Below, piece by piece: positions 15,669 to 20,154 of a stretch of 32,000 nucleotides of DNA. This DNA is from Geobacter metallireducens GS-15 (GTDB lineage: Bacteria; Desulfobacterota; Desulfuromonadia; Geobacterales; Geobacteraceae), in assembly GCF_000012925.1 (NCBI RefSeq), contig NC_007517.1:1380001-1412000 (forward strand). Reading direction: 5' to 3'. How positions within the stretch are numbered: position 1 is the stretch's first letter; each line of letters opens with the position of its first letter. A program made the translations under genes and the position numbers. The notes beneath the pieces were generated by a model. It searched no databases and was not told where the DNA came from. It saw nothing but the letters and a program-made list of their open reading frames with translations.

Positions 15669-16193
15669 ATGTCAGACAACAACCAGTCCACGCGGCAGCA
15701 GATGACAGAGCCCGCCGTCAACAAGGACAAGTTCGCAATTGTTACCGTCGATGACGAGATCAGGGCTGACGGGCTCTGTCAGTCTCTGCTCAAGCGCTTC
15801 TATGATTCGCTCCTCGAGGGGGGGATGGATCCCCAGGAGGCAACTCTCGTGGCCAGCGGCGCCGATTACTACGTGCGCGATTTCATCGTTGGATACAAGC
15901 ACCGCAATCTCTTCGACGAGCGGCCGGGAATTGTCCGGCAGTTCGCCGGCAACTGGTACATCGTCAACACTATCGAACCTTCCATTGAGGAGCTTGCCGG
16001 ACATCTGCACGGGGTGCGCTCCTTTTACCGCTTCCTCCATGGCCAAGGGCTTGTCAGTGGGGATTTTCTCGCCGTCATGGAGCAGGAGTGCGGCGACGGG
16101 GCTTTTTATGAAGGACGCATCCGGAGCTTCTGGGAGATCGAGGGTGACGGGTATCTTGCATGGGAACGTGAATGTTCACTGAAACAGGACTGA
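15669..16193 (+). CDS. Hypothetical cytoplasmic protein (174 aa)
   Basis: ATG at 15669 with GAGGAG 5 nt before the ATG. This is the 3' part of the chimeric 14292..16193 ORF in the track. Its composition is coding-like, unlike the Arg/Pro/Gly-rich upstream part of that ORF. No recognisable family. Confidence 0.6.
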   Translation: MSDNNQSTRQQMTEPAVNKDKFAIVTVDDEIRADGLCQSLLKRFYDSLLEGGMDPQEATLVASGADYYVRDFIVGYKHRNLFDERPGIVRQFAGNWYIVNTIEPSIEELAGHLHGVRSFYRFLHGQGLVSGDFLAVMEQECGDGAFYEGRIRSFWEIEGDGYLAWERECSLKQD

Positions 16194-16210
16194 AATCAGG
16201 GAGGAGAACC

Positions 16211-17008
16211 ATGAGATTCGCACGACTGCTGTTGCTGCCCCTTATCGTCATCGGAACGTTGTCCGGCTGCGCCGTCAACATGGCGGACATCCACGGTTTC
16301 AACGTCATCTCCCTTGAACAGGAAAAGGAGCTCGGCACCAAGTTCGCGGCTGAGATCGAAAAGCAGTATCCGGTCTATAACGACCCAGAAGCCCAGAAGT
16401 ACGTTGATCGTCTCGGCCGCAGGCTCCTGACCGGAGCCCGGGAGGTGAGCTTCGACTACGTCTTCAAGGTGGTGAAGGATGACAGCGTCAACGCCTTTGC
16501 CATTCCCGGCGGCCGGCTCTATGTCCACACCGGGCTCCTCAAGGCGGCCCAGAGCGAGACGGAGGTGGCGGCGGTCATGGCCCACGAGATCAGCCATGCG
16601 GTGGCCCGGCACGGCACCCGCCAGATGACCCAGCAGTATGGCTATTCCCTGGTCCTCTCCCTGGTCCTGGGGCAGAACTCGAACATGCTGGCACAGATTG
16701 CCGGAGAGCTCTTCGGCAAGGCGGGGATGATGTCCTACAGCCGGGATTATGAGAACCAGGCCGACTTCCTCGGGGTGGAAACCATGTCCAAGGCGGGCTA
16801 CAACCCCCAGGGGATGGTTTCCTTCTTCCAGAAGCTTGATACCATGGGACAACAGAATCCGAGCGCCCTCACCAAGTTCTTCTCGTCGCATCCCCTTACG
16901 TCGGAACGGATCCAGCGGGTTCAGGCGGAGATAGCCCAGCTTCCTCCCCGCACCTATCCGCCTGTTGACAATACCGACTTGCAGAAGATCAGGGCGCGTA
17001 TCAAGTGA
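16211..17008 (+). CDS. M48-family zinc metalloprotease lipoprotein (LoiP/BepA-like, no TPR domain)
   Basis: ATG at 16211 after GGAGGAGAA. Lipoprotein signal MRFARLLLLPLIVIGTLSGC. Zinc motif HEISHAV. Downstream E...DF.G and SHPL...R motifs typical of M48. Confidence 0.9.
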   Translation: MRFARLLLLPLIVIGTLSGCAVNMADIHGFNVISLEQEKELGTKFAAEIEKQYPVYNDPEAQKYVDRLGRRLLTGAREVSFDYVFKVVKDDSVNAFAIPGGRLYVHTGLLKAAQSETEVAAVMAHEISHAVARHGTRQMTQQYGYSLVLSLVLGQNSNMLAQIAGELFGKAGMMSYSRDYENQADFLGVETMSKAGYNPQGMVSFFQKLDTMGQQNPSALTKFFSSHPLTSERIQRVQAEIAQLPPRTYPPVDNTDLQKIRARIK

Positions 17009-17898
17009 TGAACGATCGGGACGAACGCTGGGACCGCATTGCCGGCAAACTGGATACTCTCCTGGACCGGTTTGATCGGTTTCTGGACGGTCATATTCCA
17101 CCACCACCGCCCGACGGCCGGCTCTTCGAGCGCCACCTCGCCTTCCGCTGGCGGCGGACAGGGGAAGGGGGGGCATTTCTGCCGGTGGAGCATCCCCACC
17201 TCCCCGACTTGGACGATCTGATGGGGATCGACCTCGTCCGTGATGAGCTTGTTCGCAACACCGGGCAATTCGTGGTTGGCTATCCGGCCAACAACGTCCT
17301 CCTGTGGGGGGAGCGGGGGACCGGCAAATCCACCTGCGTGAAAGGGCTGCTCCGGCGCTTTTCCGAGGAGGGCCTCCGACTCGTGGAGGTGCTCCGGGAC
17401 GATCTTTGCACCTTGCCTGCCATCATCGCTCCTCTTAGGAAAATGCCGCAGCGCTTCATCCTCTTCTGCGATGATCTCTCTTTCGGCGAAGGGGAAGGGG
17501 GATACCGGGAGTTGAAGGTCCTCCTTGAGGGGGGGATCGAGGAGCGTCCTTCCAATATCCTCTTTTACGCCACCTCCAACCGGCGGCACCTCCTGCCGGA
17601 ACGGATGGAGGACAATCTGGGGGGAGAGATCCATCCCGAGGAGGCGGTGTCGGAGAAGCTCTCCCTGGCCGACCGCTTCGGCCTCAACCTGAGTTTTTAC
17701 TCCTTTGATCAGGACACCTACCTCGCCATCGTTGCACGGTACGCTGAGAAGTTTTCCTTGCCCATGGGCGGGGAGGCCCTCAGGAGAGAGGCTCTGCAAT
17801 GGGCCATCTTCAAGGGGAGCCGCTCCGGAAGGTCTGCGCGGCAGTTTGTCGACGATCTTGCAGGGCGGTTGCGGGTGGCATTGCCGGCGGAGAAGTAG
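17005..17898 (+). CDS. DUF815-type AAA ATPase
   Basis: 297 aa. Walker A GERGTGKST, Walker B ILFCDDLSF. The GTG/ATG start (17005/17008) overlaps the stop of the M48 gene. Confidence 0.8.
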   Translation: MMNDRDERWDRIAGKLDTLLDRFDRFLDGHIPPPPPDGRLFERHLAFRWRRTGEGGAFLPVEHPHLPDLDDLMGIDLVRDELVRNTGQFVVGYPANNVLLWGERGTGKSTCVKGLLRRFSEEGLRLVEVLRDDLCTLPAIIAPLRKMPQRFILFCDDLSFGEGEGGYRELKVLLEGGIEERPSNILFYATSNRRHLLPERMEDNLGGEIHPEEAVSEKLSLADRFGLNLSFYSFDQDTYLAIVARYAEKFSLPMGGEALRREALQWAIFKGSRSGRSARQFVDDLAGRLRVALPAEK

Positions 17899-17901
17899 AC
17901 A

Positions 17902-18000
17902 ATGGCTTACAGAGTACGCAAAGTTACGGTGATAAAGCAGGGGAGGGGCGGATTCCGTCCGGGACAGGCAGGAGCCGACTTGGCCAAGGAACCGTGCTGA
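17902..18000 (+). CDS. Candidate 32-codon ORF in the same frame as hgcA, ending ...TGC TGA; either an N-terminal (selenocysteine?) extension of HgcA or an upstream ORF
   Basis: The ATG at 17902 has GGAG 9 nt upstream. It encodes MAYRVRKVTVIKQGRGGFRPGQAGADLAKEPC followed by TGA. The next 84 nt in the same frame are open and run straight into the hgcA GTG at 18085. Confidence 0.3.
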   Translation: MAYRVRKVTVIKQGRGGFRPGQAGADLAKEPC

Positions 18001-18011
18001 GGCCCCAAGAC

Positions 18012-18028
18012 TCCCGCGGTCAGCGGGA
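18012..18028 (+). promoter_or_regulatory. SECIS-like hairpin downstream of the in-frame TGA
   Basis: U-CCCGC / GCGGG-A stem (6 bp) with loop GGUCA. The stem begins 11 nt after the TGA, so the loop GU falls at +22/+23 counted from the U of UGA. Confidence 0.25.
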
Positions 18029-18084
18029 CCATCAACGAAAATGTCCCTGGCTTTATCCGCTGGCATGAAACTCCTGCCGGCAGG

Positions 18085-19056
18085 GTGCCGATTGTTTCGA
18101 CGGAGTTCCGGTTTGCCGACCGGCTCGGTGCCTGGAAGGCCCGGTGGGGGATCGGGCGGATGTCGTACCTGGTGCCACCGGGCCTCTACGCCATTGGCTC
18201 CCCCGGCCCCGAAGACCCCGTGGTGGTGACCGCCAACTACAAGATGAGCTACGACCTGGTCAGGAGGGAGCTTTCGGGGCGCAACGTCTGGTTCCTCGTC
18301 CTCGAAACCTTCGGGATCAATGTCTGGTGCGCTGCCGGCAAGGGAACCTTCGGCACCGACGAACTGGTCCGTCGCGTGGGAATGGTCAAACTTGCCACGG
18401 TGGTGAAACACCGGGCGCTCATTCTCCCCATTCTCGGCGCTCCCGGCGTGGCCGCCCACCAGGTTGCCCGGCGGAGCGGATTCCGGGTGCACTACGCCAC
18501 GATCCGCGCCGCCGACCTCCCCGAGTACCTCGATAACGGCATGGTGACTACACCTGAGATGCGTCAGCTTACCTTTACCACCCGTGAGCGGCTCGCCCTC
18601 ACCCCAATCGAACTGGTGACGACCGGGAAGTGGGTCGTGCCGTTCGTGGCGCTACTCGTCGTTCTGTCGATCGTTCCCGGCGGGCTTTTATCCTCCCCAA
18701 CCCTTGTCTCTTCGTTGGTTCTCTTCGTGGGGACCGTGCTGGCCGGAGCCGTTGCTGCTCCGGTACTTCTTCCCTGGCTTCCGGGTAAAAGTTTTGCCGT
18801 GAAGGGGGCAGTGGCCGGTTGCTGCTGGGCAGTTCTGTTTATTGGGGTAGGGAGGGGGGCAACGGGATGGCTTGACGCCATGGCCCTCTTTCTCACCGTG
18901 CCGGCCGTGACCGCCTTCCTGACCCTTAATTTCACCGGCAGCACCCCCTTCACCTCCCGCTCAGGGGTGAAGAAGGAGATGCGGCTTGGGCTGCCGATGA
19001 TGGCAGTGTCACTGCTTGCCGGCATTTCCCTCTGGATCGCGGCCCGTTTCTTCTGA
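18085..19056 (+). CDS. hgcA: Mercury methylation corrinoid protein HgcA (minimal extent from the first canonical start)
   Basis: Contains the diagnostic cap-helix motif GINVWCAAGKGTFGT. The N-terminal corrinoid-binding-like domain (PGLYAIG...VVVTANYKMSYDLVR) is followed by a C-terminal block of about 4-5 TM helices. An HgcB-type ferredoxin gene lies immediately downstream. There is no SD in front of the GTG at 18085. Confidence 0.9.
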   Translation: MPIVSTEFRFADRLGAWKARWGIGRMSYLVPPGLYAIGSPGPEDPVVVTANYKMSYDLVRRELSGRNVWFLVLETFGINVWCAAGKGTFGTDELVRRVGMVKLATVVKHRALILPILGAPGVAAHQVARRSGFRVHYATIRAADLPEYLDNGMVTTPEMRQLTFTTRERLALTPIELVTTGKWVVPFVALLVVLSIVPGGLLSSPTLVSSLVLFVGTVLAGAVAAPVLLPWLPGKSFAVKGAVAGCCWAVLFIGVGRGATGWLDAMALFLTVPAVTAFLTLNFTGSTPFTSRSGVKKEMRLGLPMMAVSLLAGISLWIAARFF

Positions 19057-19077
19057 GTCCGCAAGGAGTTGTCTGAC

Positions 19078-19368
19078 GTGAAAGGTTTCTCCTACCTCAC
19101 AAACGTTGCCTCCCTTGAACTCAACCGCGAAGCCTGCATCGGCTGTGGCATGTGTGTGGCGGTTTGTCCCCATGGAGTGTTCGCGCTGCAGGGCAACAAG
19201 GCCGAAATGCAGGATTTCGACGCCTGCATGGAATGCGGCGCCTGCGCCGTCAACTGCCCCGTTGGTGCCATCGAGGTCGATTCGGGAGTCGGGTGTGCAT
19301 CGGGGATGATAAATGAGTGGCTGGCGAGTATCGGCGCGAGGAAAACAAGAGGCGGTGGCTGTTGCTGA
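19078..19368 (+). CDS. hgcB: Mercury methylation ferredoxin HgcB (2x[4Fe-4S])
   Basis: Two CX2CX2CX3CP motifs (CIGCGMCVAVCP, CMECGACAVNCP), an extra Cys in GVGCASG, and a C-terminal vicinal pair ...GGGCC. SD AAGGAG (19063-19068) lies 9 nt before the GTG at 19078. The track's TTG at 19069 abuts the SD. Confidence 0.9.
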   Translation: MKGFSYLTNVASLELNREACIGCGMCVAVCPHGVFALQGNKAEMQDFDACMECGACAVNCPVGAIEVDSGVGCASGMINEWLASIGARKTRGGGCC

Positions 19369-19386
19369 CATTGAAAGCTCTTTCCA

Positions 19387-19415
19387 TTGACTTGCCGTTT
19401 GTATGGTGATAATGA
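19387..19415 (+). promoter_or_regulatory. Candidate sigma70-type promoter for the carbonic anhydrase gene
   Basis: TTGACT (19387-19392), then GATAAT (19408-19413, 15-nt spacer) or TAATGA (19410-19415, 17-nt spacer). Lies in an AT-rich 84-bp spacer. Confidence 0.3.
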
Positions 19416-19452
19416 ATAATTTCAAAAATTTGAACCACTGGAGGGATTGCGC

Positions 19453-20154
19453 ATGAACGAGACGGGAAGAAGAATTGCACGACTCATCATCGGTGTGGCT
19501 GTCGCCGCATCGGCAGCAGTGGCGTTTGCTTCCGAGGGGGGCGTGGGGGTCAGCGCCGATGAAGCGCTCCAGCGCCTCATGGACGGAAACAAGCATTACG
19601 TGGAAGGTCAGATGGGCGCCTGCCGCGAGAGCGATACGGCGAAACGGGAAGGGTTGGCAAAGGGGCAGAAACCCTATGCGATCATTCTCTCCTGTTCCGA
19701 TTCGCGGGTTCCGCCCGAGATCATTTTCGACAAGTCCATGGGTGAGCTGTTCGTGGTGCGGGTTGCCGGCAACATCCCCGATCCCGTCGTTCTCGGGAGC
19801 ATCGAATACGCTGCCGAGCACATTGGTTCTCCCCTCATCATGGTGCTCGGACACGAGCGCTGCGGTGCCGTGACCGCCACCGTCGACAGCAAGGGGAAGG
19901 CTGAAGGGAATATCGGCGCTCTGGTGAAGACCATCGCTCCTGCCGTCCAGAAGGTTAAAAAGGCAATGAAAGGCAAGCCCAAGGCAGAGTTGGTGGAAGC
20001 TGCCTGCGATGCCAACGTCAAGCTCGTTGCGGCCAATATCACCAAGAAGTCGCCGGTCGTTGCCAAGCTCGTCAAGGAAGGGAAGATGAAGATCGTGACC
20101 GCCAAGTACGATCTTGACGACGGGAAGGTAACCCTCTTCGAGGCAAAAAAGTAG
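19453..20154 (+). CDS. Beta-class carbonic anhydrase with N-terminal export signal
   Basis: ATG at 19453, 6 nt after GGAGGGA. Signal-like N-terminus with an RR pair (GRRIARLIIGVAVAASAAVAFA). Beta-CA zinc ligand motifs CSDSRV and HERCGAV. Confidence 0.9.
   Translation: MNETGRRIARLIIGVAVAASAAVAFASEGGVGVSADEALQRLMDGNKHYVEGQMGACRESDTAKREGLAKGQKPYAIILSCSDSRVPPEIIFDKSMGELFVVRVAGNIPDPVVLGSIEYAAEHIGSPLIMVLGHERCGAVTATVDSKGKAEGNIGALVKTIAPAVQKVKKAMKGKPKAELVEAACDANVKLVAANITKKSPVVAKLVKEGKMKIVTAKYDLDDGKVTLFEAKK

Follow-up and report, generated by a model that had tools for sequence, protein, structure and literature searches.

We analyzed a 32,000-nucleotide stretch of the Geobacter metallireducens GS-15 genome (contig NC_007517.1, positions 1,380,001 to 1,412,000; called the window below, with positions counted from its first letter) and, within it, the gene hgcA, whose product makes methylmercury, a bioaccumulating neurotoxin. 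An in-frame UGA at 17998-18000 of hgcA is very probably decoded as selenocysteine (Sec), which would make hgcA a selenoprotein gene; judged from the comparisons described below, we put the probability of this at about 0.9. The evidence consists of a Sec/Cys column in the alignment of homologues, conservation on both flanks of the UGA, the use of TGA only among the stop codons, and a covarying hairpin of the bacterial selenocysteine insertion sequence (SECIS) type, which is lost in the Cys forms of the gene. The GTG at 18085, taken as the start by gene callers, is an artefact, and the true hgcA spans 17902-19056 and encodes a protein of 384 amino acids (aa) with Cys32-Sec33. Selenoprotein HgcA is already known: it was found independently by Haft & Gwadz and published in 2022/2023 (bioRxiv 10.1101/2022.07.06.499078; J Bacteriol 2023, 205:e00259-22), and HgcA (NF040863) appears among the CU selenoproteins, those with adjacent Cys and Sec, in a 2026 review. 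The original prediction, a note made from the letters of this stretch, said that it knew of no description of such a form; on this point it was wrong. What is added here are small additions, namely, a quantitative comparative account of the HgcA SECIS and its two classes, the strict coupling of hairpin and TGA, counts of Cys packing, and the Cys form of HgcB. The features of the gene are listed below.

17902..19056, + strand: full-length hgcA, 384 codons plus stop, with one UGA read through as Sec33 in the proposed translation
17889..17892, + strand: GGAG, a Shine-Dalgarno-like element read directly from the sequence, 9 nucleotides (nt) 5' of ATG 17902
17995..18000, + strand: TGC-TGA (TGC 17995-17997, TGA 17998-18000), proposed Cys32-Sec33 in the P-C-U-G-P motif
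18001..18084, + strand: codons 34-61 (GPKTPAVSGTINENVPGFIRWHETPAGR), coding, with the putative SECIS followed by strand 1 of a conserved beta-hairpin
18012..18028, + strand: putative bacterial SECIS hairpin, U-CCCGC[GGUCA]GCGGG-A, with a 6-bp stem (UCCCGC/GCGGGA) and the loop GGUCA
18085..18087, + strand: GTG, the start picked by gene callers; internal codon Val62
18328..18330, + strand: TGC, the cap-helix Cys of the N(V/I)WCA(A/G)GK corrinoid motif (Cys143 in full-length numbering)

ATG 17902 begins a 32-codon open reading frame (ORF) whose last residues are ...K-E-P-C, and the TGA at 17998-18000 that closes it is the single in-frame stop. The 28 codons that follow (18001-18084) are open in the hgcA frame and contain no in-frame ATG, GTG, or TTG. 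GTG 18085, which opens a 323-aa ORF taken as hgcA by gene callers, is abutted on its 5' side by ...GGCAGG and lacks a spaced Shine-Dalgarno sequence. The original prediction had reported the GTG without a usable Shine-Dalgarno sequence, the open stretch without starts, the single TGA, the 32-codon ORF with its GGAG, and the hairpin; on rereading, each was found at the position it had given. A conserved M-A-Y N-terminus in close relatives backs ATG 17902 as the start served by GGAG. The downstream ORF is HgcA: it scored 464.3 bits against the NCBIfam equivalog NF040863 (cut-off, 275), the product matched Pfam CdhD, and GINVWCAAGKG was invariant in the HgcA homologue alignments A1 and A5. Positions 1-324 of the 325 positions in the NF040863 profile align with residues 62-383 of the full-length product, and because the profile thus begins at the GTG codon, automated annotation stops there. 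In close relatives, gene callers start either at the equivalent codon, giving 323 aa, or at the next ATG, giving 298 aa.

The TGA position was compared across 86 loci, comprising the window, five metagenome loci, and 80 loci from a scan of one genome per species. TGA was present at 77 loci and a Cys codon (TGC or TGT) at 9, while TAA and TAG were found at none; the 80 species genomes alone gave 71 TGA and 9 Cys codons, again with no TAA or TAG. The codon preceding this column encoded Cys in 86/86 loci. A search with the read-through translation returned many homologues of 382-402 aa that covered 95-99% of the query, and in these the window TGA aligned with the second Cys of PPCCGP. The long homologues share the N-terminal motif (D/E)KPPCCGPPTSxGGGxIxEKVPGFxxWLxTPAGxVPRI. 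In three syntenic relatives, whose cores are 76-80% identical, the uncalled gap 5' of hgcA carries an in-frame MAYxV...KEPC-TGA-GPKTPAVSGxI..NVPGF. VPGF, W54, T57, and A59-G60 are invariant or near-invariant across homologues. The sequences flanking the TGA, read in one frame, are conserved at the protein level, and on each side substitutions are in excess at third positions. The checks that the original prediction had proposed here, for a Cys in the TGA column and for conserved flanks, thus came out in its favour.

The TGA form was found in the cultured isolates G. hydrogenophilus DSM 13691, Geobacter sp. AOG1, Geomobilimonas luticola, Oryzomonas japonica, G. argillaceus, and Geomonas limicola, as well as in metagenome-assembled genomes (MAGs) labelled Syntrophus, Syntrophobacteraceae, Rokubacteria, and Nitrospirae. 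Among the 74 distinct TGA-form sequences, canonical start codons are missing from the stretch between TGA and VPGF in 66, and an in-frame start lies upstream in 73, the exception being cut by a contig end. Some HgcA entries in the database (our P0012, P0020, and P0105) are 335-349 aa long and begin at an arbitrary Met or Val between the TGA and the core; entries of this length include that of Geobacter sp. DSM 9736. The locus of P0012 (L017) reads PPC-TGA-GPKTPAVSG. In this clade, HgcA annotated at 298, 323, or ~340 aa is in every case a truncation artefact of the same UGA.

The hairpin downstream of the TGA was numbered with the U of UGA as +1. In the window, +15 to +20 pair with +26 to +31, the hairpin lies 11 nt after the TGA, and the loop carries G22/U23. 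A 22-nt segment was folded for the 74 distinct TGA forms and for the 9 Cys forms. All 74 TGA forms gave 4-7 consecutive pairs in the same register (mean, 6.0), with a mean folding free energy of -11.5 kcal/mol, and the G at +22 was invariant among them. The 9 Cys forms gave 1 pair and a mean of -3.5 kcal/mol, the hairpin being absent from all 9. Two SECIS classes share this register: CCCGC[GGUCA]GCGGG, which encodes P-A-V-S-G and is the class found in the window, and UCCGC[CGGNG]GCGGA, which encodes S-A-G-G-G. What the RNA requires seems to fix which peptide follows Sec (PAVSG or SAGGG); the same peptide position is variable in the Cys forms (TSTGGG, TVITGG, ATTRGG, and others).

The stem positions covary. 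The +16/+30 pair is C-G in 34 sequences and U-A in 32, and the +15/+31 pair is C-G in 37, U-A in 14, U-G in 10, and A-U in 3. The covariation score was 0.334 versus 0.193 in column shuffles (0/500 reached 0.334), and every register-slide control was lower. Position +30, a Gly third position where changes are synonymous, varies in step with the first base of a Pro or Ser codon, a pattern for which protein selection alone would be a difficult explanation. In the close clade of the window, third-position divergence was 0.09 in the ten codons after the TGA, compared with 0.27-0.32 in adjacent coding sequence.

The hairpin was also compared with published descriptions of bacterial SECIS elements. 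The bSECISearch constraints, taken here as quoted in a 2026 review, are a loop of 3-9 nt, a stem of 4-16 bp, a G in loop positions 1-2, a distance of 16-37 nt from the UGA, and a minimum free energy of -7.5 kcal/mol or lower. The window hairpin falls within all of them (5-nt loop GGUCA, 6 bp, spacing of 17 nt, -11.6 kcal/mol), as do 73/74 TGA forms versus 0/9 Cys forms; the single TGA form outside has a value of -6.8 kcal/mol. This comparison, a check of the kind that the original prediction had proposed, came out in its favour, and so did the covariation. Rfam at gathering thresholds gave no match within the window. In Escherichia coli fdhF, according to a review, the upper stem-loop comprises 17 nt (nt 15-31) and lies 11 nt from the UGA; its loop holds G23/U24, and U17 is bulged. 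The HgcA hairpin is likewise a 17-nt stem-loop at +15 to +31, 11 nt after the UGA, and its small apical loop begins with a G followed by G or U, as in the fdhF-type/bSECISearch consensus. Unlike the fdhF element, it has no bulged U17 and no evident lower stem, it occurs in two sequence classes, and its loop GU is at +22/+23 instead of +23/+24. The account of fdhF in the original prediction was roughly right; the GU of hgcA is one position earlier.

A Geobacter-type Sec-HgcA with a SECIS of the PAVSG or SAGGG class was also seen in the MAGs L019, L022 (Rokubacteria-labelled), and L027 (Nitrospirae bacterium GWC2_56_14). These MAGs are assigned to phyla other than Desulfuromonadota, and identity in the N-terminal region is 72-74%, which points to mis-binning or else to a horizontal transfer that moved hgcAB and its SECIS together.

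On these comparisons, we propose the following path for synthesis of HgcA. Translation would begin at ATG 17902. With the ribosome at UGA 17998-18000, the 17-nt hairpin at 18012-18028, 11 nt downstream, would act as a bacterial SECIS and recruit SelB-GTP-Sec-tRNA(Sec); Sec would then be inserted and translation would run on into the corrinoid domain. We infer that it is SelB that decodes this UGA in G. metallireducens.

Several observations weigh against this proposal. The single-sequence fold of 17995-18060 was no better than chance (z = -1.05; 27/200 shuffles folded as well), and because it did not rise above shuffled controls, the significance of the hairpin rests on the comparison of homologues. 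The +16/+30 covariation largely separates the two peptide classes (PAVSG and SAGGG) and may represent few independent events. Within the 32-kb window, neither a tRNA of any kind, tRNA-Sec included (ARAGORN), nor selA, selB, or selD (Pfam scans of window ORFs) was found. The evidence for decoding machinery is at the level of the lineage, not of this genome: three Geobacter genomes have SelD and about 8 selenoproteins each, and Sec machinery is encoded in all 20 species examined by Haft & Gwadz (bioRxiv 10.1101/2022.07.06.499078). In the literature, a search for 75Se labelling, mass spectrometry, or proteomics of the extension turned up no such experiment on any HgcA, and a 2024 PNAS paper said only that some HgcA homologues "may be selenoproteins." In the 2024 PNAS work, ND132 HgcAB expressed in E. 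coli from a cloned hgcA with an N-terminal His tag methylated Hg in lysates; should the cloned gene have begun at the annotated start, the extension may be dispensable for catalysis in vitro.

Since the machinery evidence is at the lineage level only, and since natural Cys forms exist and are presumably functional, read-through of the UGA might insert something other than Sec, or Sec only in part. Near-cognate decoding as Cys or Trp, or SelB-independent suppression, notably under selenium limitation, would then yield a mixed Cys/Sec population. We regard this as very unlikely. The SECIS-type hairpin has an fdhF-like span (+15 to +31), its loop G is invariant, and it occurs strictly together with TGA, never in the Cys forms; this is the signature of SelB-dependent decoding, and the lineage has SelD and other selenoproteins.

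The structure of the N-terminal extension was examined in an AlphaFold2 model of a natural Cys-form homologue (P0090) that aligns along the full length; its mean predicted local distance difference test score (pLDDT) is 76.7. Residues 51-57 and 60-65 form the confident strands of a beta-hairpin (pLDDT, 80-90). The equivalent of GTG 18085 (residue 62) falls inside the second strand, and a protein begun at that GTG would therefore start mid-strand. Residues 1-39, including the CC pair, have a pLDDT of <50, which in this model is consistent with their behaving as a flexible arm; because the CC segment is among them, its distance to the cap-helix Cys cannot be inferred from the model. Five long C-terminal helices were also predicted, which fits the five-helix C-terminal transmembrane domain of HgcA. 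The product of Sec insertion would thus be a 384-aa HgcA whose first ~40 residues form a flexible arm with Cys32-Sec33 in the PCUGP motif, followed by a predicted beta-hairpin (residues ~48-65) that is part of the folded domain.

These structural features also bear on whether 17902-18000 is an ORF of its own, encoding an upstream or leader peptide with the TGA as its stop, while HgcA is initiated independently at GTG 18085 or at a non-canonical codon and the hairpin serves in regulation or coupling. Gene callers and the NCBIfam HgcA profile both start at the equivalent of 18085, as this explanation would have it, and the heterologous ND132 HgcAB was active in lysates. However, no spaced Shine-Dalgarno sequence precedes GTG 18085, and this codon falls within a predicted beta-strand. 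Protein-level conservation of codons 34-61 extends to all homologues, including the Cys forms, in which these codons run on from the upstream part without a break, and most TGA forms (66/74) lack any start between the TGA and VPGF, whereas nearly all (73/74) have one upstream. Nor would the stop of a leader peptide be expected to be TGA in 77/77 loci or to fall on a Cys column. A leader peptide is hardly credible on this evidence. A further explanation, that a nonsense mutation or an error of assembly produced the TGA in an hgcA that is decaying or N-terminally truncated, would be the simplest view of an in-frame stop in one sequence alone. It is effectively refuted by recurrence of the same TGA across species (71/80 independent species genomes as well as metagenome assemblies made independently, with both flanks under purifying selection) and by the intact downstream gene (464 bits versus the HgcA equivalog).

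Decoding of the UGA as Sec places the window HgcA among the selenoproteins described by Haft & Gwadz, according to whom the majority of HgcA proteins contain Sec, in an N-terminal PCUGP motif. In their preprint, PCUGP is perfectly conserved in 20/20 HgcA genes, and full lengths are 363-400 aa. The window HgcA belongs to the same family and has the same UGA position, the same motif (P31-C32-U33-G34-P35), and a length (384 aa) within that range; the 61-residue extension with a Pro-Cys-Sec-Gly motif that was predicted from the DNA is the published form. The extension of G. sulfurreducens GSU1440 is given by Haft & Gwadz as MSQPGPDVDRPPCUGPKTPAVSGTINENVPGFLRWLDTPAGR, and the window peptide downstream of the motif is nearly identical to it. 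The part upstream of the motif (MAYRVRKVTVIKQGRGGFRPGQAGADLAKE) is clade specific and has no additional Cys. Nothing essential differs from the form described by Haft & Gwadz, and the window HgcA is another member. The HgcA SECIS, its classes, and its strict coupling to TGA are not described in the preprint. The 2026 review also credits Zhang & Gladyshev 2008; the main text of that paper does not contain "CO dehydrogenase," "acetyl-CoA synthase," or "corrinoid," and a description in 2008 is unconfirmed.

Two genes flank hgcA directly.

19069..19368, + strand: hgcB, a ferredoxin with a C-terminal Cys-Cys (NCBIfam HgcB equivalog, 127.7 bits versus a cut-off of 99)
17005..17898, + strand: a DUF815 AAA-type ATPase gene (Pfam DUF815, E = 1e-104), with its stop 3 nt ahead of the hgcA ATG

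The C-terminus of HgcB here is ...GGGCC, and the start of hgcB appears to be TTG 19069. The known Sec site of HgcB is Cys in this sequence (TGT 19294-19296); Sec occupies this GVGU-motif site in ~6% of HgcB proteins (Haft & Gwadz, bioRxiv 10.1101/2022.07.06.499078). HgcA would be the only selenoprotein of the HgcA/HgcB pair in G. metallireducens, HgcB being a Cys form. The gene order M48 peptidase, DUF815, hgcA, hgcB, beta-carbonic anhydrase (window 16172-20154) is kept in loci L001, L004, and L005, and the window is 89% identical in DNA over 6 kb to G. hydrogenophilus DSM 13691. A promoter/terminator scan of the DUF815-hgcA interval gave nothing above shuffle expectation; together with the 3-nt spacing, the lack of a promoter- or terminator-like site between the two genes suggests that DUF815 and hgcA are co-transcribed. 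We know of no functional link between DUF815 and HgcAB. Elsewhere in the window, two long ORFs, at 68-1813 (+, 581 aa) and 1912-2697 (-, 261 aa), had no Pfam match; they may not be genes, as long spurious ORFs are common in GC-rich sequence.

We also infer a role for the Cys-Sec pair: its thiol and selenol would capture Hg(II) and hand it to the methyl-corrinoid site, together with the C-terminal Cys-Cys of HgcB. Like that Cys-Cys, the HgcA pair consists of vicinal chalcogens carried on a terminal segment that is predicted to be flexible and adjoins a catalytic domain. The C-terminal Cys pair of MerA and NmerA are comparable flexible vicinal-Cys arms that handle Hg(II). HgcA differs from the arms of HgcB and MerA in having Sec at one position, and its hand-off of Hg is a proposal. 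Among CU selenoproteins with ties to mercury or organometallic chemistry, SaoL, SaoB, SaoC, and a MerT subgroup resemble HgcA in having an adjacent Cys-Sec that can be swapped with Cys-Cys and that has been proposed as a soft-metal ligand. Their folds are unrelated to that of HgcA and their motif is C-terminal or internal, so that the likeness would be a functional analogy only.

The Cys forms of HgcA differ from the TGA forms in a further respect. An extra CC dipeptide within 30 residues upstream of PPCCGP was found in 9/9 Cys forms (loci L025, L028, L031, L037, L042, L048, L066, L068, and L071, with one or two additional CC each) versus 1/74 TGA forms, and the window extension has no Cys besides Cys32. 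Such "Cys packing" was noted qualitatively by Haft & Gwadz (bioRxiv 10.1101/2022.07.06.499078). Because every Cys form has lost the hairpin and carries at least one extra CC, one selenol on the N-terminal arm may be functionally worth several thiols. Sec and multiplied Cys might then represent alternative evolutionary solutions for Hg(II) capture, and selenium supply could modulate methylmercury formation via HgcA translation; we offer this idea tentatively, as one that is plausible and open to considerable doubt.

The value of the window is that it provides one more correctly diagnosed member of the family along with comparative support for the SECIS, and it lies mainly in annotation: hgcA is properly annotated as 17902-19056, with a transl_except for Sec at 17998-18000, instead of as 18085-19056. 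Wider consequences with respect to truncation and selenium were already pointed out by Haft & Gwadz (bioRxiv 10.1101/2022.07.06.499078). If most HgcA proteins have a Cys-Sec arm, then most database entries, as well as the constructs used for structural modelling and biochemistry, would be N-terminally truncated. The step of Hg(II) acquisition may depend on selenium, and selenium availability could thus influence environmental methylation rates through the synthesis of HgcA.

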